A stretch of 64,000 bases of DNA from positions 2,304,001 to 2,368,000 of the forward strand of contig CAXXDV010000003.1 of assembly GCA_963674745.2 (NCBI GenBank), written 5' to 3'. The position numbers and the translations under genes are program-made. Below, piece after piece: positions 10,610-62,686 of this stretch. How positions within the stretch are numbered: position 1 is the first letter of the stretch; every line of letters begins with the position of its first letter. Source of the DNA: Desulfosudaceae bacterium. GTDB taxonomy: Bacteria > Desulfobacterota > Desulfobacteria > Desulfobacterales > Desulfosudaceae. The notes below the pieces were generated by a model, which worked only from the letters and a program-made list of their open reading frames with translations, ran no database searches and was not told the origin of the DNA.

Positions 10610-10815
10610 GTAGGGGCACGGCGTGCCGTGCCCTATCCGTTTTCGGGCAGGCACGGGGGCCTGCCCCTACATTATTCATGAACGCCCTCCACGGCCCGTA
10701 GGGGCAACCCCCTGTGGTTGCCCTATCCCCGTTTTCGGGCAGGCACGGGGGCCTGCCCCTACATTATTCATGAACGCCCTCCACGACCCGTAGGGGCAAC
10801 CCCCTGTGGTTGCCC
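10610..10815. repeat. Cluster of five GTAG-type REP palindromes with a repeated linker (BIME-like)
   Basis: Alternating GTAG-GGGC...GCCC and GGGC...GCCC-CTAC units; linker ATTATTCATGAACGCCCTCCACG repeated. Confidence 0.85.
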
Positions 10816-10817
10816 TT

Positions 10818-11246
10818 TTACCGAGCGGCCTCTTCAGCCGGTTTCTCTCCGACTTCCGGCGCTGCATCGCTCGGTTCCTGCTGTTCTTCTTGACTCAGCT
10901 CTTCCGTTTTCGGTTCTTCAGAGTCATCGAGAACGGCCAGGCGAGCCGTCAGGGCGTTGTTTTCATCCATCAAGGAAACGGCTTTATCCTTGATCTGTTC
11001 TAATTCGGTTTGCTGTTCCAGGCGCATTGACTTTTCATGGATATACAAACCGGCAAAACAAAGTGCCGCCAGGAGCAGGATCAACATCCCCACCCCCGTG
11101 GTAATGATATAACGCTGCAGATGATTTATCGTGATGGCCTCACCATATTGATCAAAAATCATCACCTGCCAGCTTCGCTTTAAACGGCTGGATTTGCCAG
11201 GGACCGCTCCCCCCCTCGGTTCTTGAATCGTCGACTGTTTATCCAT
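10818..11246 (-). CDS. Membrane-anchored coiled-coil hypothetical protein
   Basis: One TM segment, coiled coil and acidic tail; downstream of ruvB. Confidence 0.6.
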   Translation of the reverse strand: MDKQSTIQEPRGGAVPGKSSRLKRSWQVMIFDQYGEAITINHLQRYIITTGVGMLILLLAALCFAGLYIHEKSMRLEQQTELEQIKDKAVSLMDENNALTARLAVLDDSEEPKTEELSQEEQQEPSDAAPEVGEKPAEEAAR

Positions 11247-26465: not shown

Positions 26466-27407
26466 TTATTTTGCCCCAGCCTGTTTAAGTAGTTCAACTA
26501 GTTCTTTATGCACACGGGTTTTTGATGCGAGCGATAAAGCCGTTTCACCGTCATTGTCTTTAGCATTAACCTCTGCCCCGCTTTCCAATAGCGCTTTTAC
26601 GACTTCAGTATGGCCGTTAATGGATGCATTAATTAATGCTGTTGCGCCTCTCTGGTTTTTGGCGTTTATCTCTGCCCCGTTTGCCAACAACGTTTTTATG
26701 ACTTCAACGTTTTCATTAATGGATGCATAGTGCAAAGCTGTCGAGTCTTTATCGTTTTTGGCGTTGACCTTCGCGCCACTTTCCAACAGCGCTTTTACGA
26801 CTTCAATATGGCCAAACCGGGAGGCTAACCTCAAAGCTGTCCAGCCTTCATTGCTTTCGGCGTTTACCTCTGCCCCTCCTGCCAGTAACGTCTTCACGAC
26901 TTCAACATGGCCATCTTGGGATGCCTTCTGCAAAGCTGTAATGCCTTCATTGTTTTTGGCGTTTACGTCTGCCCCGCTTACTAACAACGCTTTTACGACT
27001 TCAATGTGGCCTTCCTGAGATGCTATCTGCAAAGCTGTAAAGTCTTCATTATCTTTAGCATTGACAGTTGCTCCGTTTGCCAGAAGAGTTTTTACAACTT
27101 CAGCATGGCCACACTTGGATGCATTCATCAAAGCCGTTGCGCCTTTTTGGTTTTTGGCGTTGACTTCTGCCCCATTTGCCAACAGCGATTTTATGACTTC
27201 AATGTTTCCACCAATGGATGCATAGTGCAAAGCTGTCGATCCTATATCGTTTTTGGCGTTGACTTCTGATCCACTTTCAAGCAAGGATTTTACGGCCTGA
27301 ATATCACCTTTCTCGGCTACGGTGAATATATCGACATCATCCCTGGTACATGCCGGAATAGTTAATGGCAAGACAAAGAAAACTAGAAGAACAACTAAAT
27401 ATCTCAT
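26466..27407 (-). CDS. Ankyrin-repeat lipoprotein (cassette)
   Basis: ~9 repeats of TALxxASxxGHxEVVKxLLxxGAxVNAK; lipobox LTIPAC. Confidence 0.93.
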   Translation of the reverse strand: MRYLVVLLVFFVLPLTIPACTRDDVDIFTVAEKGDIQAVKSLLESGSEVNAKNDIGSTALHYASIGGNIEVIKSLLANGAEVNAKNQKGATALMNASKCGHAEVVKTLLANGATVNAKDNEDFTALQIASQEGHIEVVKALLVSGADVNAKNNEGITALQKASQDGHVEVVKTLLAGGAEVNAESNEGWTALRLASRFGHIEVVKALLESGAKVNAKNDKDSTALHYASINENVEVIKTLLANGAEINAKNQRGATALINASINGHTEVVKALLESGAEVNAKDNDGETALSLASKTRVHKELVELLKQAGAK

Positions 27408-27543: not shown

Positions 27544-28029
27544 ATTCTCCTCATAACATATTGCTTCGAAGAATGATATTTTGTCCTTTAAAACAACCCT
27601 AAATGTAACTATTTTGTCATTCTTTCTATATTGAATTATATGACCAAAAAAAGAATCTTTAATCGTACAAATTGATTTAACGGGTATAGATACTGGTCGG
27701 AAGAAAATCCCACAGAAAATATTAAATGGAAAATGTAATCCGATTTCTACTCGATCTGATGTTACGTTTATCCAAACACAATTATTGCCACCCAAAACAT
27801 ATAAAATGCCTGCTGATGTCCATGTTTGTTCATATAGATAATCTGTATTTGAATGATAGAATATTGTATTACCAGTTTTTAAGAGCGCTATTGTTGATAA
27901 GCTGAGGTAGCTTACAATAAAAATTATGTTGTAAAAGTCACCTATCCTAAACCAATTGTAAATTCCCCAAAATAGTAAGATTCCGAAAGCAATGAAGCAT
28001 AATATTTCTATCCGACGGTTCTTGTTCAT
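27538..28029 (-). CDS. Membrane hypothetical protein (cassette)
   Basis: Two TM segments; stop lies in the attC inverse core. Confidence 0.7.
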   Translation of the reverse strand: MNKNRRIEILCFIAFGILLFWGIYNWFRIGDFYNIIFIVSYLSLSTIALLKTGNTIFYHSNTDYLYEQTWTSAGILYVLGGNNCVWINVTSDRVEIGLHFPFNIFCGIFFRPVSIPVKSICTIKDSFFGHIIQYRKNDKIVTFRVVLKDKISFFEAICYEENA

Positions 28030-28044
28030 GGACTCCCTTTTGAT

Positions 28045-28166
28045 TGCTAACGTCTTCAGCCAAAGGGCGCCAGGGCTTACTCTGACTGACTTAAAGGTGG
28101 TTAAAGTTTAATTCAGCGCGGTTGTTCAAAACCCGAGTGCCCTGGCGATCCTATTGCGCTGAATGG
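28045..28166 (-). repeat. attC family B, interrupted at its inverse core by the recombinase/HUH element; remainder at 30467-30472
   Basis: Family B arms end gaatgG|TT; cassette core GTTAGAAAA (30927-30935) matches 30466-30474. Confidence 0.88.
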
Positions 28167-28259
28167 TTGAACGAAGCCGCTACGCGGCGGATTAATAAAA
28201 AACAAGGTATACTCCAATACGTGCTCAATTACGGGCACCCCCAATGAAAGGAGTATACC

Positions 28260-29164
28260 ATGAACGATTCGGAAGTAAAACGTTTCAACCGGCTTTATGA
28301 GAGGCACCTGGAGTTGCTCAAGCTTCAGGGTATGAGTCCGAGGACCATTGATCTCTATGCCCGTTCAGTCCGCCGCATTCGTAACCATTTTGATTGTTGT
28401 CCCGACCATTTGCGTCCGGAACAATTGGAAGGTTATTTCTCTCAGCTGGTGGATAGCCATTCCTGGAGCACGGTCAGGGTTGACCGTAACGGCTTGCAGT
28501 TCTTCTGGCGGTATGTGCTCGGAAAGGACTGGGAATGGATCAAGATCGTCAAACCGCCGAAAGTCAAAACCATACCGGACATTCTTACCGTTTCCGAAGT
28601 TGAACGGATCATCGGCAAAACCAAGAAATTGCGTTACCGGGTATTTCTGCTGACAACCTATTCCATGGGATTGCGTCTGGAAGAGACGTTGTCCCTCCAG
28701 ATCGGAGACATTGATGCCGAACGCAAAAAGGTTCATATTCGTCGGGGCAAAGGCCATAAAGATCGAATGCTGCCGTTGCCGGACCTGACGTTGCTGGGCC
28801 TGCGGGAGCTTTGGTGTAAGCATCGTCATCCTAATTTGTTATTTCCCAATTGCAAGGGGTCTTTAGAGACCATCCGGGCGGCCACCAACTTTATGGATAA
28901 AGGCGGCTGCCAGAGGGCCATGAAAGTCGTCGTCGCCGAATGCGGCATTAAAAAAAAGTATCCATCCACTCCTTGCGACACAGTTTTGCCACCCACCTGC
29001 TTGAACGCGGCTTAAGCCTCCGACACATCCAGGCCTTGCTTGGCCATGCCAGTCCCTCCACAACAGCACGTTATACGCATCTAAGCGATATAACGGAGCA
29101 GGACAGCCTGACTGTCTTAAATGAGTTGATAAATACAATCCATGTTGATTTTAGAAAGGTATGA
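28260..29164 (+). CDS. Tyrosine recombinase split by a -1 frameshift at A8G (28950-28958)
   Basis: Frame 1: SAM-like N-terminus, [16 protein letters not shown]; frame -1: [17 protein letters not shown]...TTARYTH. Confidence 0.88.
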
Positions 29165-30216
29165 TTATGGAACTGGCATCAATTATTGATCAGTACGCTG
29201 ACAGGTTTATGGAAAAGCACGGCCAAAAAGCCTTGCCGGGGCATCTTAAAGCCTTGCGTGCCATACGCAGGTGCCGCACTCCTGCCTCCGGAGAATTTTA
29301 CGTTCAGTGCCCCGGCTGCCAACATGGACAATGGAAACCAATGTCCTGCGGGCACCGGAGCTGCCCCAAATGCCAGAATCATGAGGCCAGTCAGTGGATC
29401 GACCGGCAGCAGGAGAAACTGCTTCCGGTGCTTTACTTTATGGCGACGTTTACGCTGCCGTTTGAACTCCGTCCGCTGGCCTGGAACAATCAGCGGGATG
29501 TATATTCAATCTTCTTTTCCTGTGTGTCCGAAACACTCAAGGATTTTGGCTTAAACCCGAAGCAAATGGGCGCAGAAATCGGTTTGACCATGGTTCTGCA
29601 TACGAACACCCGAAGTCTGGATTATCATCCTCATATCCATGTGGTGGTGCCCGGCGGCGGGATTGATAAGCGCCGGCGACAATGGAAAAAGAAAAAAGGA
29701 AAATATCTGTTTAATGAGTTTAACCTGGCCACGGTCTTTCGTGCCCGTTTTCTGGCCGCTTTAAGAAAAGCCGGCCTTTATGTGCCTAAAAACACACCTG
29801 CGGAATGGGTCGTGGATTGTGAAAAGGTCGGTAACGGGCTCCCGGTCATAAAGTACCTGTCCCGGTACTTATACCGGGGTGTAATCAGTGAAAAGAATAT
29901 TGTGGCCAATGAAAATGGCCGGGTCACCTTCAGGTACACTGAAAGCGGCACCGGCCATACCCGTTATCGTACGCTTGACGGAGAAGATTTTCTCCAGCTC
30001 ATTCTGCAGCATGTCCTGCCCAAGGGCTTCCGCAGGGTGCGCGATTACGGGTTTCTTCATGGCAACGCCAAAAAGACGCTGCAACTGGTGCAATTGATCC
30101 TGCATGTCCGGCTTGGAATAAAAACCCAACGCCCAAGGCCTGCTGTAAAGTGCCCCCGTTGCCACATCCCGATGGTCATCAAAGGGTTCCGTTACGCGGC
30201 CTGGAAGCCCGGATAA
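29161..30216 (+). CDS. IS91-family (Y2/HUH) transposase
   Basis: Zn-binding CPGC...[37 protein letters not shown]. Confidence 0.94.
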
Positions 30217-30409
30217 AACGCTGCCGCGGCTATGACCCGGCGCAAAAAAGAACAGGAGGCAATCACACCCATGAACAAAATTGTCTTTTTAAAACCTGCC
30301 TTCAGGTTAAGGGATCCCTGCGTCCTGCAAAAAAAGTACTATCCAGGTTCACGCCGTTTGCCCACTACCCCAAATTAAATATTTTCTTTATTATAAGACC
30401 GACGGGCTT

Positions 30410-30472
30410 GTTCAACCCCGGATAAGATCGTGGCTCGTTGTCACTCACACGATCTATCCTTGTTCGTTAGAA
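30410..30472 (+). repeat. attC-like hairpin belonging to the IS91-like element
   Basis: GTTCAAC-CCC-GGATA(A)GATCGTG-loop-CACGATCTATCC-TTGTTC-GTTAGAA; extrahelical base on the + strand left arm. Confidence 0.78.
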
Positions 30473-30475
30473 AAA

Positions 30476-30922
30476 TTAATTTTTCGGACATTCTCCATAA
30501 AAAGCCATTTCGGGATAATTTGATCTCAAAATATTATAGATAATATTACATTCTTCTGAGAAATGTTTTTCGGGATCAACATTAAAGCAAGCGCTCTGAC
30601 TAAATTGGATAAATATTTCTTTTGACTCTTCTTCGCAAACACGTACTATTGATAATCTCGAAAAAGATTCTTTTTGTGCCTCAAACAATACAGGATATGT
30701 CCCCCCATATCCATCAGATATTGTATTATTCCCATCGTTTTGATTATCTTCAGATATGATGTATTTCTCCCGCTCAAGATCCTTGCTGAACGATGCCATA
30801 AATTCGGCGAGCTGATCTGCTGAGAAGATTTTATGGCCCGCAACATGAAAACTATTCATCTGAACGACACACGAACAACCAGCACAATATAATATTGTCA
30901 TTGTAAGTATGAATGGTCTCAT
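30476..30922 (-). CDS. Putative lipoprotein (cassette)
   Basis: LYCAGC lipobox-like; ATG 13 nt after GTT core. Confidence 0.72.
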   Translation of the reverse strand: MRPFILTMTILYCAGCSCVVQMNSFHVAGHKIFSADQLAEFMASFSKDLEREKYIISEDNQNDGNNTISDGYGGTYPVLFEAQKESFSRLSIVRVCEEESKEIFIQFSQSACFNVDPEKHFSEECNIIYNILRSNYPEMAFYGECPKN

Positions 30923-30928
30923 TGTGTT

Positions 30929-31046
30929 TTCTAACGTCTGCCACCACCAGCAAGCAGGGTTTGCAGACTTCGCTAAAGTGAGTTTAACTCTAAATTACGC
31001 CAAAACCAAGGCAGCCCGCCCCTGCGAGTCTGTGTGAGTGGCGTTG
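30929..31046 (-). repeat. attC family A interrupted by IS110; inverse core displaced to ~32663-32669
   Basis: ...gagtggcgtt | IS | gttaactg; matches cassette core GTTAACT at 32974-32980. Confidence 0.88.
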
Positions 31047-31134
31047 ATAATCATTGAGCCTCCCCCTTCAAACAGCATACCATTATGCTGAGAAATTGGA
31101 GTTGGCAAAAACCAAAAACAAAGGAGGAAGCCCA

Positions 31135-32178
31135 ATGAAATTCTATACCAAACAGCACAAGTATTACTGCGGTATCGACCTTCACGCCAGATCACTGTAT
31201 GTCTGTATTCTGGACAGTGACGGTCAGGTTGTTTATCACAAAAAAATCAAATCAAAACCGGATGCACTCGAACGTGCGATCTCCCCCTTCCTGGACGATC
31301 TTGTCATCGCCGTGGAATGTATGTTCTCCTGGTATTGGGTAGCAGATTTCTGCGAAAACCGCAATATTCCGTTTATCCTCGGACATGCCCTTTACATGAA
31401 AGCCATTCATGGCGGCAAGGCCAAAAACGACAGGATCGACTCATACAAAATTGCCAGCCTGATCAGGGGCGGCAATTTCCCGGTGGCCTTTGTATACCCC
31501 GCCGCGATGCGGGCCACCCGGGACCTGCTGCGAAGAAGAATGCATCTGACGCGCAAACGGGGCGAACTCATCGCGCATATCCAAAACACCAACACCCAGT
31601 ACAACCTGCCGGAGATCGGAAAAAACTTAAAGTACAAAGCCAATCGCAAGCTGGTCGAAGATCGATTTGACGATCCCAGCGCCCAGAAAAGCATTGATCT
31701 GGATGTCCAGCTGATCGGCTTTTATGACCAGCAGCTTTCCAGCGTTGAATATCATATCCTCAAACATGCCAAGGGCCACGATTACCACAGCTATATGCTG
31801 TTGAAATCCGTTCCGGGCATCGGCGACATCATCAGCCTGGTCATCTTGTATGAAATCTACGACATCAGCCGGTTCCCGACCGTCCAGGACTTTGCCTCGT
31901 ATGCCCGGCTGGTCAAATGCAGGGCAGAGTCAGCCGGAAAAATCTACGGCACCTCCGGCGCCAAAATCGGCAACGCCCATTTAAAATGGGCCTTTTCTGA
32001 AGCAGCCGTCTTATCCATAAGAGGCAACGAACCGATCAAGGCCTATGTCAATAGATTGACCAAACGGCACAGTAAAGGAAAATCACTTACCATCCTGGCC
32101 CACAAGTTAGGCCGGACAGTGTATTATATGCTCAAACATAAGGAACCGTTTAATATGGAACGGTTTCTTCCGACGTAA
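31135..32178 (+). CDS. IS110-family DEDD transposase/recombinase
   Basis: CGIDLH, VEC, KNDRIDS, SVPGIG, ESAGK, GNAHLKWA; AAGGAGG RBS. Confidence 0.95.
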   Translation: MKFYTKQHKYYCGIDLHARSLYVCILDSDGQVVYHKKIKSKPDALERAISPFLDDLVIAVECMFSWYWVADFCENRNIPFILGHALYMKAIHGGKAKNDRIDSYKIASLIRGGNFPVAFVYPAAMRATRDLLRRRMHLTRKRGELIAHIQNTNTQYNLPEIGKNLKYKANRKLVEDRFDDPSAQKSIDLDVQLIGFYDQQLSSVEYHILKHAKGHDYHSYMLLKSVPGIGDIISLVILYEIYDISRFPTVQDFASYARLVKCRAESAGKIYGTSGAKIGNAHLKWAFSEAAVLSIRGNEPIKAYVNRLTKRHSKGKSLTILAHKLGRTVYYMLKHKEPFNMERFLPT

Positions 32179-32181
32179 AGC

Positions 32182-32640
32182 TTGCCGCCACAGCTTGATG
32201 CCTAACTGGGACCTGTGAAAATGACTTTGACAGTGATATGTGAAATTGAATTTCTGCAGCCCGACTGCTTAAATATCAATAAAGCAACCGGTTGGGATCC
32301 CTTGGCGTTGATTAGAGTGGCGGCATTTAAATAATAAACGGAACAGGAAACGCTGCGCCTTACCCGACCCTGCATTATAACTGGATGGTCACGGCAGTAT
32401 CGTGATCAACCCCGACCTTTGAATAGGGCGGCATGAGGTCACCGAATATATTCTAGGGCGTTTACCACTGTGTTGTTCAACTTGGTAAACCGGCAGCAGA
32501 TACTGCGTAAGAGACCCTCAATATGTGTTTGTAGCAGCTATTTTACTACGCGCTTTGAATTAAAGACAGTGAGTCCGTTCTGTTTAAAAAACGGAAAGGG
32601 GGAGTAAAAACTCAGGCCCTAAAAAATTTTTATTCCCTAT
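32182..32640 (+). ncRNA. Candidate bridge/seek RNA in the IS1111-type non-coding end
   Basis: Two stem-internal-loop units sharing TAACTGG...TTGAnTAG; segments match target and element ends. Confidence 0.55.
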
Positions 32641-32737
32641 TGACTCCGGGCGGCTCATATGTGTTAACTGATTTTGTTTATAAAATTTCTTGTTAGATAA
32701 ATAATATTTAAAAAACAAATTTTTAAATCTTTTGTCA

Positions 32738-32968
32738 TTATAATTTTGGACTAAATTTTAATAACATTTCACGAATATATAGAATGACCATTATGGGCCA
32801 CGCTAAAAAACTTACAATTATAAAAAATATTAAACGTGCAGATAAATGGTAAAGAGCAAATTTGATTGATGCATTGTGGCCTTTAATTGAATTGTTCAGA
32901 TCTATAATTATCCATATTATTAGCCATACAAAACCTACAGCAATATATGCACAAAGAAAATTTTTCAT
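32738..32968 (-). CDS. Small membrane protein (cassette)
   Basis: Two TM segments; ATG 12 nt after core. Confidence 0.65.
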   Translation of the reverse strand: MKNFLCAYIAVGFVWLIIWIIIDLNNSIKGHNASIKFALYHLSARLIFFIIVSFLAWPIMVILYIREMLLKFSPKL

Positions 32969-32973
32969 ATTAC

Positions 32974-33096
32974 AGTTAACGTCCACCGTCACTTGGGAGC
33001 AGGGAAAGGTGACTTTTGCAAAGCCACGTTAACACAGAACCACGATACTATAAAAGCAGCCCGCCCCTGCGAGTCAAGTGCATGGTGTGGTTATAT
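32974..33096 (-). repeat. attC (family A variant)
   Basis: ATATAAC...GTTAACT, 123 bp. Confidence 0.88.
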
Positions 33097-33447
33097 GGCA
33101 ATTACATTCATTATTGCCTCTTTATCTTTAGTTTTCAGAACTTCAACAAGTTTTTTAACACGATTGATGGACTTATCAAAAACTGGAGATGTATTCTCAA
33201 ACGGCAATAATAGTTCAAGACTTGTTTCGGCTTGCTTCAATGCTTCATTAAAATTTTCTAAGCGAGCGTATGTACAGGCAATACACTCTATTAATATCGG
33301 GGTTCCACCTTCATTTTCCGCAAATTTCAGCGCAAGATTATAATGCTTTAGTGCGTCCTCGAAATTACCTTTGCGAATATTTTTGTGGCCTTTGCCCTCA
33401 TGCCATCCCGACATCATTGAATGATATATTTCTTTTACCGGATTCAT
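33091..33447 (-). CDS. TPR-like protein (cassette)
   Basis: GNFEDALKHYNLALK, YARLENFNEALKQAE. Confidence 0.72.
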   Translation of the reverse strand: MNPVKEIYHSMMSGWHEGKGHKNIRKGNFEDALKHYNLALKFAENEGGTPILIECIACTYARLENFNEALKQAETSLELLLPFENTSPVFDKSINRVKKLVEVLKTKDKEAIMNVIAI

Positions 33448-34549: not shown

Positions 34550-34559
34550 AGTTATATAG

Positions 34560-34686
34560 GTTTAACGTCTCAAGCCAATGGCGGCCAGGGCTTCCACTGA
34601 CTTGGTTAATAAGTATGGTTGTTCAGTCCCCCCGAAATTTCAAAACCCGAGTGCCCTGGCTGTCCACTTGAGCTTGATTGTTATCG
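34560..34686 (-). repeat. attC family C
   Basis: CGATAAC...GTTAAAC, 127 bp. Confidence 0.9.
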
Positions 34687-34692
34687 AAATAA

Positions 34693-35019
34693 TCATTTTG
34701 GGCTTGGGTTTCTATATACAAATTTCATTTGTTCAATAGAATTTGAATTTTTGAATAGAAACCATACTCTATTTTTTGTCCAGATAGTCACGTGCCCAGA
34801 ATCATCTATATCCATCGCCTCAAACGTATCATTATCCGATGTAATGATGCTTTTCGAAAAAATTGTACCTCTTTCAGAAGAAGGAGAATAGTCTTCTGGG
34901 TAATCCCCATCTTCATTTGATTTTTGAGCTTGTGCCGTATTTAATCGATCTTGTCTTGATTTAACTTTTTCGGGATTTGTTGGATATATGACAAAATCTT
35001 GCCATTCTTCGTAAATCAT
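34693..35019 (-). CDS. Hypothetical protein (cassette)
   Basis: ORF fills the cassette downstream of the intron 3' end. Confidence 0.7.
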   Translation of the reverse strand: MIYEEWQDFVIYPTNPEKVKSRQDRLNTAQAQKSNEDGDYPEDYSPSSERGTIFSKSIITSDNDTFEAMDIDDSGHVTIWTKNRVWFLFKNSNSIEQMKFVYRNPSPK

Positions 35020-35030
35020 ATTTTTCTCGA

Positions 35031-37033
35031 GTCGTGGTAGGAATGCCGGTTACCCGGCACCCCCCACACAGTCCCGGACGTGCGGTTTTCCCGCATCCGG
35101 TTCCTCGGTTATACTCGCTTCCGTGTCGGCTTAGCTCAACGCGCACGTGCGAAAACGTTTCTTTTCCGTCAGCTTCGGTTTCGGTATTTTTACGTATTCT
35201 AAGACCTGCTTAAATCGTTCCCAATTATAGCTTTTACGCTGGCTTCTGCGATTCAGCCATTTAAATGCCGAGCTGATCACATCTCTGTAAAACGACCATA
35301 CCGCACGGGCATTCCCCCGTACATAAAAATAATTGTAATGGCCGGTCAGCTTACGTTTCAGCCCATCAAAGATTTGTCTTTTCGGCAGATGCCGGGACTT
35401 CTTCAACCAATCTCTCATACGCGCCAAGGCTTCACGTTGCTTGGCCGGAGCCGTGCGACGCTGTGCCCGGGCAACACCTTTGCGGTCTTTTGACCAGTAA
35501 AATTCGAACCCCAGAAACGTGAACGTCCTGTCACGCTCCCGGCCGGGTTGGAATCGGCTGAACCGGATGACCTTTGTCTTGCTCGGCTCCACCTCAAGAC
35601 CATAGCAGCCGAGGCGTTTCGAAAGAACATCATAGAACCGGTCCGCATCTTCCCGATATTGAAAGGCGCATACCCAGTCATCCGCATATCTGCACATGAT
35701 GGCACGGCCTGCCAGCCTCGGTTTGACTACCTCCTGGAACCATTTATCCAGCACCTCATGCAGATAAATGTTCGACAGGACGGGAGATACGAGTCCTCCC
35801 TGGGGCGTCCCGGTAACCGGATGCTCGACCTGTCCGTCCGGATGCAGGATGCCCGCTTTCAGCCATTTTCTGATCAACCGCAAGAACGCCCGATCATTGA
35901 TCCGTTTCTCCAGTATGGCCATCAGCTTATCATGGTTAATGGTATCAAAATAACTTTTGATATCCGCTTCCACAACATAGCCGAATACGCCGAACTGAAA
36001 CTGAAACGTCAGGTCGCCGATCGCGTCCTTGGCCCCTTTATCCGGTCGGTATCCGTACGAACAATCCAGAAAATCCGGTTCGTATATCTCCGTCAGGATC
36101 ATGGCCACCGCCTTCTGGACAAGTTTGTCCTCCAAGGCGGGGATGCCCAGGGGCCGTTTCTTACCGTTACGCTTTGGAATAAAACGTCTTTTGACCAATC
36201 TCGCCCGGTATCTCTTCTGCCGGAGCTGTTCCGCCAGCCCTTCCAGGTTGGCGATCAGGTCCTGACTGTATGTCTTGACGGTGATGTCGTCATCGGCTAT
36301 GGCCGAACTTTTATTCAAGCCCTTCCACGCCAGATGAAGCAGTTCCGTATTAAGCAGACCATAAAGATCCCGAAAGCGATGCTGCGTGTTGAACCGAGCC
36401 GTTTTGGCTATCCCCCGCAGTGAGGTTTGCACACGTTTATCCGATCCTGCTGTGTCCGGCATGTGTTTCCTTTGCGGGCTACGTACTTCCGTCAAGTCCT
36501 TCCCCATGTACGTGGCTTTCCCACGCTCAGAGTACTATGCTCGATACGACTCCCACCCAACCAGGGTTCCTCCACTTTCGCTTTGGTTCCCCTTCCTGCC
36601 CTGCGGCTACTTAGGCTCGGCTGATATCTGTATCCGGGTTTCCCTTTCGTGTCTAAGTGTCAGCCGGACCATATTGCCGCGCAGGAGTCGGATGGGCCTC
36701 CCAAGTTCTTGTGTGCGTCTCTTCGTACATGCCACGGCTTGATAACTCCGCCGGCCCTCCACACCCTCACCATAACGGATGCTTTTGTGTTGCCTTCGAG
36801 TACGTTACAACTCTCGGCGACCGGAACCAAGCTTCCTTTCGAAGCGATACCAGCACTTCAGGGAGCACGGACTCCCCTACGGCCTGTACGATTCTCTGTG
36901 TACGCTTCGTGTGGGTCGTTCGACGGTATGCCTATCCTTCCCAATCACGCAACACTCGATACGGGTGGCTGGTTAGGCCTCACCCGACGGGGACTTGCAC
37001 CCCGCAAGACGCACCAAGCTTCGCTTGGCGCGC
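35031..37033 (-). mobile_element. Group II intron (2003 nt) inserted in attC core after GTTA
   Basis: 5' GCGCG; domain V GAACCGGATGCGGGAAAACCGCACGTCCGG; domain VI ending CTACCACGAC; joined exons give GTTA|TCG matching inverse core CGATAAC. Confidence 0.93.
35131..36432 (-). CDS. ltrA: Group II intron reverse transcriptase/maturase, no endonuclease domain (start GTG 36432 or up to 36507)
   Basis: RPLGIP, SYGYRP, GTPQGG, RYADD, FTFLGF, GHYNYF. Confidence 0.95.
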   Translation of the reverse strand: MQTSLRGIAKTARFNTQHRFRDLYGLLNTELLHLAWKGLNKSSAIADDDITVKTYSQDLIANLEGLAEQLRQKRYRARLVKRRFIPKRNGKKRPLGIPALEDKLVQKAVAMILTEIYEPDFLDCSYGYRPDKGAKDAIGDLTFQFQFGVFGYVVEADIKSYFDTINHDKLMAILEKRINDRAFLRLIRKWLKAGILHPDGQVEHPVTGTPQGGLVSPVLSNIYLHEVLDKWFQEVVKPRLAGRAIMCRYADDWVCAFQYREDADRFYDVLSKRLGCYGLEVEPSKTKVIRFSRFQPGRERDRTFTFLGFEFYWSKDRKGVARAQRRTAPAKQREALARMRDWLKKSRHLPKRQIFDGLKRKLTGHYNYFYVRGNARAVWSFYRDVISSAFKWLNRRSQRKSYNWERFKQVLEYVKIPKPKLTEKKRFRTCALS

Positions 37034-37157
37034 TAACGTCTGAAGCCAATGGCAGCCAGGGCTTCCACCGACTTGGTTAAAGATTTTGGTTATTCAACTC
37101 CCACTATTTTTCAAAACCCGAGTGCCCTGGCTGTCCACTTGAGCTTCTTGGTTAGTT
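37031..37157 (-). repeat. attC family C (core interrupted by intron)
   Basis: AACTAAC...GTTA|. Confidence 0.9.
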
Positions 37158-37537
37158 TTCTTCTTCTCTCTGATGTTAAGAATTGTCTTATACAAATCCT
37201 CCATATCCTGACCAGCCCATGGATACATCCGATAATATTTTGATCTGGGCAATATGCTGTTGGCTATGTCGAAGCAATTACAAGTATCGATGTCAATTTG
37301 GAAATTCATTATGACCATTGATTTGGTTTTATTATCATAAATCTTGAGATCTTCCCATGAACGGGGCCATTCATTGTTTCTCTTCACATAGAATGTTGTT
37401 TGTTTTATAACATCGGCAGTTTTATATTCTGGCCCGGTGTTAGCAATGAGTGCAGTGAAACGCCCCAAAAAATAGGCAACCAAGATTGATAGAATGAATA
37501 AAGCCGCTATTAAAAATTTCTTCTTCTTACCAGTCAT
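37094..37537 (-). CDS. Membrane-anchored hypothetical protein (cassette); reads ~60 nt into its attC
   Basis: N-terminal TM; stop at 37094 inside the attC loop. Confidence 0.7.
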   Translation of the reverse strand: MTGKKKKFLIAALFILSILVAYFLGRFTALIANTGPEYKTADVIKQTTFYVKRNNEWPRSWEDLKIYDNKTKSMVIMNFQIDIDTCNCFDIANSILPRSKYYRMYPWAGQDMEDLYKTILNIREKKKTNQEAQVDSQGTRVLKNSGS

Positions 37538-39676: not shown

Positions 39677-39803
39677 ATATAACGTCTTCAGCCAAAGGGC
39701 GCCAGGGCTTACTCCGACTGACTTAAAGATGGTTAAAGTTCAATCGCCAAGGTTTTTCAAAACCCGAGTGCCCTGGCGATCCTCTTGCGCTGAATGGTTA
39801 TAA
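39677..39803 (-). repeat. attC family B
   Basis: TTATAAC...GTTATAT, 127 bp. Confidence 0.9.
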
Positions 39804-40127
39804 GATTTTGTTTATATAATATAAGACAGTTACAAAACATAAAGCTGAAAATAGAAAGTAGAAAGACACCAGAACATTGAACAGTTTAGGCATTTTTTCT
39901 TTATCGATAGCAACTGTTGACGCCCAGGCTCTTCCAGAGACAACTGAAAAGAAAGCGCTCAAAAATGATATTAGGCAAAACAAGACTGCGAACCACAAAG
40001 TTACTGTATCTTTGCTCAAAAAACCTTGCTTGTATTGCCAAATCACAAAAAACGAAATAAATATGCTCGGGATTATTAGAAATAATTGGATATTATAAAA
40101 TCTATTTCTCTTTTTATGGTCAACCAA
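39798..40127 (-). CDS. Membrane protein (cassette)
   Basis: Three TM segments; stop in inverse core. Confidence 0.68.
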   Translation of the reverse strand: MVDHKKRNRFYNIQLFLIIPSIFISFFVIWQYKQGFLSKDTVTLWFAVLFCLISFLSAFFSVVSGRAWASTVAIDKEKMPKLFNVLVSFYFLFSALCFVTVLYYINKIL

Positions 40128-44011: not shown

Positions 44012-44085
44012 ACCGAACAGTGTAATAAATGGAAAATTTTTCCATGTTATTGACTCATATATGTGGAAAATTTTCCATTTATTAC
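44012..44085 (-). other. attI site (core G|TTCGGT at 44018-44012; upstream extent approximate)
   Basis: GTTCGGTGC matches the inverse core of the first attC; no attC arms upstream; lies 5' of intI. Confidence 0.85.
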
Positions 44086-44218
44086 TATTATTAAAGGGGT
44101 AAACGTGGAAAATTGTCCGCATTATTTTCCACGTTTGCTTTTTCCAATATATTATTCTTGTAATTTTCCATTTATTACCATATTAAAGGGGCAAACATGG
44201 AAAGTTGAAAGGGTCATC

Positions 44219-45211
44219 ATGGAAGATAAACCCAAATTCCGCCCCAATCCCCAGTTGAAATTGCTCGATCAGGTCCGCCAGGTCCTTCGATATCATCATT
44301 ATGCCTATAGCACGGAACACACCTATAGTCACTGGATCAAACGTTACATTTATTATCATGGTGGTAAAACCCATCCCCGTGAATTAAACGAGAAAGACAT
44401 TGAAAATTTTTTATCGCATCTGGCTACAAATGTCAACATTGCAGCTACGACCCAGCGACAGGCATTGAACGCCCTGGTGTTTTTGTACCGTGAGGTGCTG
44501 GATATCCCGCTGACGAAAAAGATTGCGCCGGCCAAGGTAAAAAGGCAAAGCCGACCTCCAACGGTCTTAACACAACAGGAGACCGCCCGGCTTCTGGAGC
44601 AGATGACCGGCACCAATGCGCTGATGGTCAAACTGATGTATGGTTCCGGTATGCGCCTGATGGAATGCATCCGTCTGCGAATTCAAGATATTGATTTTGG
44701 TCAGGGGAAAATTTTCGTGCGGGGCGGTAAAGGGGGGAAAGACCGGGTCACTCTGCTGCCGTCAAATATCCAGGAGAAACTCCAGCATCATATTGGCCGG
44801 GTAAAACAATTGCACAGGGACGATCTTGAAGCGGGTTACGGCCGGGTGTATCTGCCCGGAGCGCTGGCCAAGAAATACCCTGACGCACCAACCAAAATCG
44901 GCTGGCAGTATGTTTTTCCGGCCAAAGAACGATCGTTGGATCCGCGTTCAGGTAAAATACGACGTCATCATGTATTGGGATCCACCCTGCAGAAGGCCAT
45001 CCGCACGGCTGTACGTCGGGCCAGAATAGACAAACGGGTTTCAAGTCATACCCTGCGGCACAGTTTTGCCACCCATATGCTTGAAAACGGGGTTAATATA
45101 AGAGTGCTGCAGGAGCTTCTGGGGCATGCTGATGTGAAAACCACCGAGATTTATACCCATGTGATGAGAAAAGATATTGACGGCTTGAAAAGCCCGTTGG
45201 ATCTGCTTTAA
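44219..45211 (+). CDS. intI: Integron integrase
   Basis: LLDQVR..LR..HYAYSTE.TY, YGSGMRLME, GKGGKDR, integron-specific insert (VYLPGALAKKYP..WQYVFP..RRHH), [24 protein letters not shown]. Confidence 0.97.
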   Translation: MEDKPKFRPNPQLKLLDQVRQVLRYHHYAYSTEHTYSHWIKRYIYYHGGKTHPRELNEKDIENFLSHLATNVNIAATTQRQALNALVFLYREVLDIPLTKKIAPAKVKRQSRPPTVLTQQETARLLEQMTGTNALMVKLMYGSGMRLMECIRLRIQDIDFGQGKIFVRGGKGGKDRVTLLPSNIQEKLQHHIGRVKQLHRDDLEAGYGRVYLPGALAKKYPDAPTKIGWQYVFPAKERSLDPRSGKIRRHHVLGSTLQKAIRTAVRRARIDKRVSSHTLRHSFATHMLENGVNIRVLQELLGHADVKTTEIYTHVMRKDIDGLKSPLDLL

Positions 45212-56614: not shown

Positions 56615-56676
56615 AAACCCTGCCCGTCTTTCGGTTCACCCCGCATTACATTAATCATGAACAATCCCCTCGGCCC

Positions 56677-56824
56677 GTAGGGGCAACCCCCTGTGATTGC
56701 CCTTCACCGGGCGGCCACGGGGGGCCGCCGCTAAACTGTCCATGAACGCCCTCCACGGCCCGTAGGGGCAACCTCCTGTGGTTGCCCTATCCGTTTCCGG
56801 GCAGGCACGGGGGCCTGCCCCTAC
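56677..56824. repeat. Cluster of four GTAG-type REP palindromes
   Basis: Same units and linker as 10610-10815. Confidence 0.85.
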
Positions 56825-56863
56825 AAAATTCGCACGCGACCGACAACCTCCCTGTTGTTAAAT

Positions 56864-57766
56864 TCATGGGCCGTCAGGATCAAGGTGACACCCATGCACA
56901 TACCCGATGGATTCGGCCGGAATCTGCTGCTCGTAAAAGGCCGTCATGGTCAGCAGCTTCAAAAACAAAATGATATACCTGTGATACAGCAGCCGGCCGG
57001 ATTCCATCCGCTCGAAAAAACGCTCCGCTTTTTTTCGGGAAAGCCGGGAAAACCGGCGACCGTTGAAGATCAAAGAGACCAGCTCGACATACCAGAGCAT
57101 GAGCGGGGTCAGGCGACGGATCACCGGGGCCAGTGTGTCCAGGTAGGCGTTTACCCGGGGAACCAGTTCATAATCAGCCGCGCCTGCTTCAAAAGCACCA
57201 CCCCGGGGAATAATCGTGCCGGCCGCTTTTTTGAAAAAAGTCTCGGCTTTACCATGAATAACGGGCCCGGCTTTTCCTGGCGGCCGCAAGGGGGCATCAA
57301 CCCTGTTTTTGACCTGTTTCCCGGTAAAACGGCCGCGGCCTTCCCTTTCAACCGAGAAATAAAATGAATTAAACGTCAGGCCGAACAGCCGGAAAACGCC
57401 ACGGCCCAGGTAGCACTGGTCACCGACCTTTTTCAGTTCATCATTCAGGGGACGCAACCAGAAGGGGTTGCCGGTCCGGTTGTAATTGATGCGCAACACC
57501 TGCTGGCCGTCACCCAGAATCGAGTCTGCCGGTTCAATGGTAAACAAACCGATACGAATTTTACCGGCAAATTCATTAAAGCCGCCGCTTTCCGGTTCGG
57601 GGTCGGCAACATCGACCGGGAAAAACTTACGGTGGCCGAAGAACCGCAACGGGGGCAGAAAACCGGTCACCAGTCTTACCGCATAATACCCATGCAGCTC
57701 TTCCGTACCCGGCGGCGGACTTTGAGCAAACTGTTTTTTTAATTTCAAAAACGGCCTGAACCCCAT
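56864..57766 (-). CDS. Two-domain hypothetical protein; C-terminal half resembles gluconate-2-dehydrogenase subunit-3-like GMC partners
   Basis: AGTIIP, RFSRLS..K, LK.L...AFY...SIGY; upstream of GMC gene. Confidence 0.6.
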   Translation of the reverse strand: MGFRPFLKLKKQFAQSPPPGTEELHGYYAVRLVTGFLPPLRFFGHRKFFPVDVADPEPESGGFNEFAGKIRIGLFTIEPADSILGDGQQVLRINYNRTGNPFWLRPLNDELKKVGDQCYLGRGVFRLFGLTFNSFYFSVEREGRGRFTGKQVKNRVDAPLRPPGKAGPVIHGKAETFFKKAAGTIIPRGGAFEAGAADYELVPRVNAYLDTLAPVIRRLTPLMLWYVELVSLIFNGRRFSRLSRKKAERFFERMESGRLLYHRYIILFLKLLTMTAFYEQQIPAESIGYVHGCHLDPDGP

Positions 57767-57804
57767 TTCACCCTCGAATCCTCGAGCCTGGAACTTTAAA
57801 AAAA

Positions 57805-57971
57805 TAACCGTGACAAAAGGGCACGGCACGCCGTGCCCCTACAACATTTGCGAACGGACGGTGAACCCTTAAACAAATAACCATGACAAAAGGGCACGGC
57901 ACGCCGTGCCCCTACCGTATTTGCGAACGGACGGTAAACCTTGAACCTCTTGAACCCTGAACCTTGAACCT
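57805..57971. repeat. Two direct copies of a REP-containing unit followed by TGAACC tandem repeats
   Basis: TGACAAAAGGGCACGGCACGCCGTGCCCCTAC...TTTGCGAACGGACGG twice. Confidence 0.8.
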
Positions 57972-62581: not shown

Positions 62582-62622
62582 AATCGTCTCCTTAATTCAC
62601 TTGAACCACAAACCCGACAAAT

Positions 62623-62686
62623 GGGCACGGCACGCCGTGCCCCTACAACCTTTGCGAACGGCCCTCAAACCTTGAACCCTGAACCC
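62623..62686. repeat. Single REP unit plus TGAACC repeats inside an operon
   Basis: GGGCACGGCACGCCGTGCCCCTACAACCTTTGCGAACGG. Confidence 0.75.

Follow-up and report, generated by a model that had tools for sequence, protein, structure and literature searches.

An IS91-family element with a tyrosine recombinase gene at the inverse core of integron attC sites

The element, the attC site it interrupts and its copies

The 64,000-nucleotide (nt) stretch of Desulfosudaceae bacterium DNA analysed here (the window; assembly GCA_963674745.2, contig CAXXDV010000003.1, positions 2,304,001 to 2,368,000) contains an integron whose cassette array lies on the minus strand, extending leftwards from about 43600 to about 25000, with two families of attC repeats. 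At 28166|28167 one of these repeats, the attC belonging to the cassette open reading frame (ORF) at 30476-30922 (-), is interrupted by an element with genes for a tyrosine recombinase and an IS91-family HUH-Y2 transposase (Table 1). The structures at its ends, its copies in this genome and its relatives in others suggest that it is very probably an IS91-family member that targets attC and moves by way of a minus-strand intermediate; that it is active and, as an insertion sequence, has specialised on the attC sites of integrons seems to us an evenly balanced proposition.

Table 1. Positions in the window of the element, its parts and the associated integron features (nt, nucleotides; bp, base pairs; aa, amino acids)
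Feature	Position	Strand	Remarks
Whole element	28167..30466	+	2300 nt; full-length 1-2300 match and identical junctions in four copies
Body of interrupted host attC	28045..28166	+	Plus strand is the integron's bottom strand
Left, terIS-like terminus TTGAACGAAGCC	28167..28190	+	5-bp hairpin: GCCGC 28176-28180, TAC, GCGGC 28184-28188
Tyrosine recombinase, frame 0, 251 aa	28260..29015	+	SAM-like N-domain and first part of catalytic domain; PF13495 1.7e-16, PF00589 1.4e-12
Slippery heptamer A AAA AAG	28952..28958	+	Within A8 run 28950-57; site of -1 shift
Recombinase C-terminal part, -1 frame	28958..29164	+	HxLRH, LGH, catalytic Y; PF00589 profile positions 132-169
IS91-family HUH-Y2 transposase (tnpA), 351 aa	29161..30216	+	N-terminal zinc-binding domain; HPHIH, YLSRY
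Subterminal box GGGCTTGTTCAAC	30404..30416	+	Pairs with left terminus on minus strand, by covariation
oriIS-like, attC-like hairpin	30420..30459	+	12-bp stem, one bulged A (30420-30432 with 30448-30459), variable loop
Right terminus TTGTTCG	30460..30466	+	TTATTCG in most relatives
Rest of host attC R'' core, TTAGAA	30467..30472	+	Abuts stop codon of cassette ORF 30476-30922 (-)
Integron integrase of host array	44063..45211	+	TIGR02249 428 bits (cut-off 265)

Excising 28167-30466 in silico restores a 128-nt attC, with G|TT at either junction: the left junction reads ...GCTGAATGG|TTGAACGAAGCC and the right ...ATCCTTGTTCG|TTAGAA, and joining 28045-28166 to 30467-30472 gives an imperfect palindrome (CTAAC...GTTAG; predicted fold -27 kcal/mol) that is the same as unoccupied repeats of the array (families D2, D5, D6, D9 and D10), such as that at 39679-39805. 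An earlier sequence-only reading of the window had given these coordinates, junctions and terminal sequences, and was right in all of them. The insertion point, G|TT (AA|C on the cassette top strand), lies in the R'' core, with the element in a single orientation. As G, T and T are present at both junctions, the boundary could be drawn at any of four positions; the same reading's "no duplication" agrees with a conservative exchange, but a 3-bp GTT repeat fits equally well, the two being indistinguishable by sequence.

When the whole genome was searched with the 2300-nt element, four full-length copies (100, 97, 97 and 96% identity) were found, together with two short, weak matches to other recombinase genes. 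The junctions are ...G|TTGAACGAAGCC and ...CCTTGTTCG|TTA(G/T) in each of the four; the attC sites are all different, with left flanks of three attC types, and the nucleotide position and orientation of the insertion are constant. Profiles of the two attC families detect about 239 attC-like sites in 15 clusters (86 sites on contig C3 and 153 on C1), which span about 173 kb of the 5.55-Mb genome, or about 3%. All four copies lie inside clusters, in the same orientation relative to the attC model; their shared junction position and cluster location are not due to chance. Three integron integrases in the genome score above the family cut-off; two of the copies adjoin one, and two lie in clusters without one. 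Two gene-cassette clusters of the genome, with 88 and 45 sites, have no adjacent integrase.

The copies differ from each other at 112 alignment columns. Third codon positions account for 25/29 of the variable sites in the frame-0 part of the recombinase gene, 4/7 in its C-terminal part and 36/50 in tnpA, a bias which indicates that both genes are evolving under purifying selection. An account of the inverted orientation as insertion into the lagging-strand template was dropped: GC skew fits three of the four copies, attC polarity all four. A solo left-end motif at C3:1001331 is probably a chance match (about 0.7 such matches are expected), and a fifth, distant IS91-family transposase gene (C3:1013981-1014874, 126 bits) lies outside this element family.

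Relatives were sought in one genome per species; 155 pattern matches included 101 tblastn-confirmed relatives, of which 80 were kept. These have transposase identities of 46-77% and come from Desulfobacterota, Gammaproteobacteria, Omnitrophota, Spirochaetes and other groups. With the four copies of this genome they make up 84 loci, in which simple motif rules locate both termini (42 loci), the left only (9) or the right only (18), most of the remaining loci being cut by contig ends; where both ends are present they are 2186-2432 nt apart. Left ends follow the pattern G|TTG(A/G)ACGAAGCCGC-loop-GCGGC, conserved in the 47 left ends listed, and begin with TTGAAC or TTGGAC in 51/51. Right ends follow the pattern GGGCT(T/C)GT(T/C)CAAC, a spacer of 2-5 nt, GGATAAGATCGTGG-loop-CACGATCTATCC and TTATTCG|TT. 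Most relatives thus have TTATTCG where the window copy has TTGTTCG, so the GTTC and CTTG of the window copy are not conserved.

One relative, 43% identical, is found on an IncC plasmid of E. coli in a class 1 integron (intI1), between aadA1 and qacEdelta1 and inverted with respect to the cassettes. It splits the aadA1 attC at ...CGAATTG|TTGAACGAAGCC and ...CCTTATTTG|TTAGACATTATTTGCC, which is again AA|C of the R'' core, and its integrase gene has no frameshift. Backward insertion at the inverse core of attC, as suggested by the sequence-only reading, is seen in 4/4 copies and in this integron, and that reading's autonomous mobile element with cassette-like grammar is likewise supported. More distant relatives (35-36% identity), also with an integrase gene, occur on Clostridium and Herpetosiphon plasmids; their ends are not definable from single copies.

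Aligned junctions have, on the left side, T at -3 (40/45), T or G at -2 (42/45) and G at -1 (44/45), and on the right side T at +1 (54/55) and +2 (55/55), A at +3 (38/55) and G at +5 (37/55). Raw folding energy of the rebuilt empty sites was rejected as a measure of attC character, having failed to separate insertion sites from random GTT sites, and an arm-pairing score was used in its place (threshold at least 20, partner arm sought within 160 nt). This threshold is reached by 13/36 insertion sites, by 22/590 control GTT sites in the flanks, which come from the same loci with neighbouring attCs included, and by 5/400 random GTT sites of the genome. An opposite-strand ORF of at least 60 codons ends 45 nt or less from the right junction at 32/48 distinct sites, compared with 329/2000 random sites, and it is where these ORFs end that the cassette R'' core lies. 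Taken together, the arm-pairing scores and the ORF ends make attC targeting by the element family well supported. A substantial minority or more of the insertions are nevertheless in sites that are not demonstrably attC and have the core motif only. The sequence-only reading had looked to homologs for a terminal hairpin, G|TT junctions and attC flanks: the hairpin and junctions are kept, but clear attC flanks are found only at the 13 of 36 scored sites. Since hairpin and G|TT junctions are retained, the relatives do not have the hairpin-less ends at plain IS91 targets that would speak against that reading.

One possibility is that the element is a true gene cassette moved by the host IntI, with its two genes as cargo and its terminal hairpin as a working attC. 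Its ends have cassette grammar (a TTGAAC start, an RYYYAAC...G end and a G|TT crossover), an integron integrase above the cut-off is present in 5/5 host genomes tested as well as in this one, and the E. coli copy is in an intI1 integron. However, every copy is inverted and at R'', not at R' or attI, and IntI would need the top strand of the host attC, the use of which is disfavoured about a thousand-fold. For two of the four copies, moreover, the attC cluster is far from any intI; a full attC is lacking at many sites; and termini and gene pair, of IS91 architecture, are conserved together. The inversion and R'' position of every copy make this the least likely of the routes considered here, and in our view a very improbable one.

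Coding capacity and terminal structures

The recombinase gene is split between two frames at ATT AAA AAA AAG in all four copies, and A AAA AAG is a classic -1 slippery heptamer. Among 50 relatives with an A run at this place, 43 need the same -1 shift (31 with A8 and 12 with A9), the two with A7 (L021 and L063) are in frame, and five have another frame relation; L018 has no A run and an uninterrupted recombinase frame of 343 codons. The in-frame L021 homolog is 301 aa long, from which it follows that the -1 product would be the full-length recombinase. No stimulatory RNA structure was found downstream of the shift site (z = +0.56), and ribosomal frameshifting and transcriptional slippage on the A8/A9 run are equally possible sources of the shift. 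The TGA stop of the recombinase overlaps the ATG of tnpA (ATGA), which couples the two genes; the tnpA product scores 164 bits on PF04986, 96 bits on PF14319 and 388 bits on NF033538 (cut-off 125).

On family profiles the full-length L021 homolog scores 176 bits for XerA, 161 for XerD and 141 for the integron integrase TIGR02249 (cut-off 265); the N-terminal part of the window recombinase has 88 bits on the last of these. When aligned with the IntI of the window, both the element recombinase and that of the E. coli relative are missing insertions of 19, 8 and 4 residues. The IntI-specific additional domain, which would lie between the GKGxKDR strand and HxLRH, is missing in the element recombinase. 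By these comparisons the enzyme is Xer-like and not IntI-like, a feature that the sequence-only reading had overlooked along with the conserved -1 frameshift.

At the right end of the element, GGGCTTGTTCAAC (30404-30416) is followed by CCC, the 12-bp hairpin and TTGTTCG, and GGCTTGTTCAAC near this end is a near-complement of the left end GTTGAACGAAGCC. The hairpin was compared in 52 distinct right ends: 99.0% of cells are paired, compensatory changes occur in four of the 12 pairs (23 cells), 0/500 shuffles reach the observed covariation, and there are six T·G pairs on the minus strand. Covariation of this kind shows that the terminal hairpin is real.

Pairing between the left terminus and the subterminal box was compared in 49 distinct elements. 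TTGAAC occurs with GTTCAAC in 26 and TTGGAC with GTCCAAC in 16; in seven, TTGAAC occurs with GTCCAAC or GTCCGAC, a combination that wobbles (T·G) on the minus strand and is mismatched (A·C) on the plus strand. The converse combination, TTGGAC with GTTCAAC (a wobble on the plus strand only), is found in 0/49, so that the totals are 42 Watson-Crick, seven minus-only wobbles and no plus-only wobbles. A second pair, between position 8 of the left end and GCT(T/C)GT, has six minus-only wobbles, no plus-only wobbles and one double change. The loops of both terminal hairpins are GNA triloops, which are stable, on the minus strand only; the left loop is GTA. The covariation shows the left and right ends to pair with each other on the minus strand, which is possible only once they are brought together on one strand. 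The strand that carries this structure is the one that an HUH enzyme would displace, a point in favour of the sequence-only reading. In the computed fold of the minus-strand junction (-20 kcal/mol), a 12-bp stem with GTTCAAC/GTTGAAC is followed by an internal loop and a second 12-bp stem, whose 3' arm has a bulged T; so modelled, the joined ends would be laid out as the bottom strand of an attC is, and the junction would fall in the 5' arm, at AA|C.

Ends joined head to tail are found in sequenced DNA as well. In the 2453-nt genome contig L060, which is circularly permuted, the first 141 nt recur as the last 141; its unit is 2312 nt long and its junction reads ...CCTTAATCG|TTGGACGAAGCC; no such terminal overlap was found in the other relative loci examined. 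A search with the junction motif yielded 19 metagenome contigs, giving 20 with a head-to-tail junction when L060 is included. A second circularly permuted contig, L092, has a unit of 2327 nt, and in at least six contigs (L088, L089, L094, L096, L097 and L102) a complete copy is followed by the start of another. The junctions carry a single GTT between the ends. At one locus, present in two records (L099 and L103), a 402-nt gene-less derivative forms a perfect tandem inside a short attC-like site; made up of left and right termini, in two identical copies at L099 2211-3015, it looks non-autonomous and like a miniature inverted-repeat transposable element (MITE). At four loci (L015, L022, L047 and L097) the right terminus has tandem duplications of the last 7, 19, 22 or 44 nt, each ending ...TTCGTT, which are possibly initiation or termination errors at the nick site.

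Possible routes of transposition

Assuming that the element moves through a minus-strand intermediate, its HUH-Y2 transposase would nick the minus strand at the right (ori) junction, and rolling-circle replication would displace that strand up to the left (ter) end; a nick at the right junction with displacement leftward would release exactly the structure-bearing strand. The box beside the ori hairpin would then pair with the ter end, so that the ends meet and the strand is closed into a single-stranded circle. Folded in the manner of an attC bottom strand, the joined ends would consist of an R box (GTTCAAC/GTTGAAC), an internal loop and the 12-bp stem, which has a T bulged out of its 3' arm and is capped by a GNA loop. 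Finally, the element's Xer-like recombinase would carry out a single-strand exchange between the circle and the R'' core of an attC target, and replication would finish the insertion, a step modelled on IntI with cassettes or on XerCD with the single-stranded DNA of CTX phage.

That the element's own recombinase performs the integration is the route we prefer, with confidence just short of even: attachment to attC, an orientation fixed by attC and a conserved, tightly regulated recombinase all occur together in this lineage, and canonical IS91 elements, which have no recombinase, use GTTC/CTTG. The two-enzyme pathway as a whole is put forward more tentatively, at somewhat under an even chance. 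It would consist of a minus-strand circle made by the HUH enzyme and of a frameshift-limited Xer-like recombinase that exchanges a single strand with the "wrong" (top) strand of the host attC.

Several observations weigh against this pathway or the attC targeting that it assumes. At 23/36 of the scored insertion sites no partner arm is detectable by the heuristic within 160 nt, so that a short sequence motif may suffice, which would favour a mechanism with the transposase only; many of these 23 sites share the proximal-arm sequence. The element recombinase lacks the IntI-specific domain that reads the extrahelical bases of attC. The termini fit a plain IS91 oriIS/terIS architecture, and by analogy with IS200/IS605 the pairing of the two ends could be a guide for the HUH enzyme. 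The covariation counts ignore the shared ancestry of the elements, and tandem copies, not circles, may be the source of the head-to-tail junctions. Among public contigs from four runs, compared with 27900-30700, there is no empty-site contig and no circle joint, though as contigs only they are silent on absence.

Another possibility is that the transposase acts alone. On the minus strand, TnpA would cut after ...CAAC at ter and after NAAC in the target; base pairing with the GTTGRAC box that flanks the ori hairpin would identify both sites, in the manner of the IS200/IS605 guide. The recombinase would be an accessory, acting either in regulation, like Orf121 of IS91, or in the resolution of tandems and dimers. 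The IS91-family hallmarks of a Y2 transposase and a hairpin at each end are present, and the junctions agree with the family's lack of a target duplication, though with a GTT shared by both (PMC13181058, excerpted text). The target YAAC resembles the CAAC of the ter end, matching the family rule that the target is similar to the ter cleavage site, and the pairing of box with ter covaries. The frequency of sites without a clear attC fold would also be expected, and the recombinase product, which should mostly be the truncated frame-0 form, would fit a regulatory protein. At one locus (L079) the left end is 222 nt upstream of tnpA with no recombinase gene, on a contig that ends inside tnpA.

A four-base target cannot, however, explain the presence of 4/4 copies in 3% of the genome, nor why all have the same orientation with respect to attC. 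Conservation across phyla extends to the recombinase gene, to its catalytic residues and to the recoding site, and canonical IS91 elements without a recombinase use GTTC/CTTG targets anywhere (excerpt of PMC13181058). Action of the transposase alone is thus a serious candidate which we nevertheless regard as rather doubtful, and integration by the element's own recombinase is kept as the preferred route.

Significance and comparison with known systems

Integrons are the main gene-capture platform of Gram-negative bacteria, and to our knowledge the only attC-specific invaders known are IS1111-attC elements and group IIC-attC introns. The present element would seem to add a third kind of integron-specialised parasite, one that is widespread in bacteria. 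By splitting attC at the inverse core, including that of a clinical class 1 resistance integron, it can influence expression as well as the excision of cassettes and the stability of the array. Its enzymes are a candidate for a natural pair able to recognise attC DNA in folded, single-stranded form while lacking the IntI-specific domain, and with them a cooperation of rolling-circle and tyrosine-recombinase chemistry can be put to the test. The -1 shift at A AAA AAG of a tyrosine recombinase gene is a clear added example of recoding. If the two-enzyme pathway is true, this would be the first transposon to couple HUH and tyrosine-recombinase chemistry, and a natural system showing how single-stranded cassette-like circles arise. 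A bolder extension, if true, would be that attC hairpins and IS91-type ori hairpins share ancestry.

Both known kinds of attC invader appear to be present in the same array. At 30932-33100, an IS110-family transposase gene (31054-32178, +; NF033542, 208 bits) follows an attC of the other family, which diverges from intact copies right after ...GGCGTTG, at or beside the same G|TT position; this is probably an insertion of the IS1111-attC type. At 34700-37030 is a minus-strand group II intron (RF02005 at 36736-36997; reverse transcriptase/maturase ORF at 35131-36507), between attC copies 34556-34697 and 37027-37168 and apparently in cassette orientation, which would be unusual for attC introns. 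Elsewhere in the window, a cassette ORF at 26466-27407 (313 aa, -) consists of 99-nt (33-residue) repeats, by appearance of ankyrin type, and outside the integron two families of GC-rich palindromic repeats (73-92 nt), by appearance like repetitive extragenic palindromes (REP), form tandem pairs at 10637-10820, 56616-56882, 57789-57934 and 62593-62665.

The element resembles IS1111-attC elements (IS110 family) and group IIC-attC introns in its fixed insertion place in attC. It differs from the former, which use a DEDD transposase and a guide RNA, and from the latter, which use a ribozyme and a reverse transcriptase, in having a HUH transposase and a tyrosine recombinase; there is no DEDD (IS110-type) transposase in the element, whose proteins match PF00589 and PF04986. 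Group IIC-attC introns are described as inserting at a fixed place in attC, opposite to cassette transcription (excerpted text of PMC9229058, in which IS1111-attC elements are mentioned too). The presence of attC-like sites at the end of ISCR28 is reported as data not shown (PMC12772301, excerpt). A literature search found no description of attC targeting by IS91-type elements, ISfinder and TnPedia being outside its reach.

Two other systems offer parallels. In IS200/IS605 (HUH-Y1), a guide adjoining a hairpin recognises the cleavage sites by base pairing; the present element similarly has a short box beside its terminal hairpin that would pair with the cleavage site, and putative single-stranded intermediates. 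It differs in being Y2 and not Y1, in a pairing of 7-12 bp and not 4 nt, and in its extra recombinase. CTX phage and similar elements are integrated from folded single-stranded DNA by Xer recombinases, and the proposed last step of the two-enzyme pathway would likewise have an Xer-type recombinase act on a single-stranded hairpin of the element, with a single-strand exchange completed by replication. Here, by contrast, the element brings its own recombinase gene, attC and not dif is the target, and a rolling-circle transposase would supply the single strand.

With gene cassettes and IntI the element shares the G|TT crossover, the RYYYAAC/GTTRRRY cores, head-to-tail arrays and a folded single-strand site with a bulged base on its 3' arm, and the cassette bounds TTRRRY...RYYYAAC-hairpin-G have their counterpart in TTGAAC...GTTCAAC-hairpin-G. 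Unlike cassettes, which are in array orientation at attI/R', it is inverted at R'' in 4/4 copies and in the E. coli integron, and it carries its own enzymes. Its recombinase differs from IntI in lacking the IntI insertion and, for the L021 homolog, in scoring 141 bits against a TIGR02249 cut-off of 265. The element is neither an integron integrase system nor a normal cassette.

Some IS91 members, such as ISShvi3, reportedly have an upstream integrase gene in their ISfinder entries, with no attC target stated. The IS91 family is characterised by the lack of a target duplication, by subterminal palindromes at both ends and by a target tetranucleotide that adjoins oriIS and resembles the ter cleavage site, and in IS91 a single-stranded circle of the bottom strand is the functional, integrating intermediate (PMC13181058, in excerpt). 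Like IS91, IS801 and IS1294, the present element has a HUH-Y2 transposase with a zinc-binding domain and hairpins beside oriIS (downstream of tnpA) and terIS (upstream), and the stop of its upstream ORF overlaps the tnpA start, as does that of orf121 in IS91 (excerpt of PMC13181058). It differs in its target, the attC R'' core TTG|TTAKGY and not GTTC/CTTG: no GTTC, CTTG or GTCC is found next to oriIS, where the right flank is TTA(G/T)G(C/T), or NAAC on the minus strand, and GTTC or CTTG is in the flank of 0/4 copies of this genome. It differs also in having a frameshift-dependent tyrosine recombinase as its upstream gene, and in joined ends that are predicted to fold like attC. By its transposase and termini the element belongs to the IS91 family, and by its target it lies outside the family's rule.

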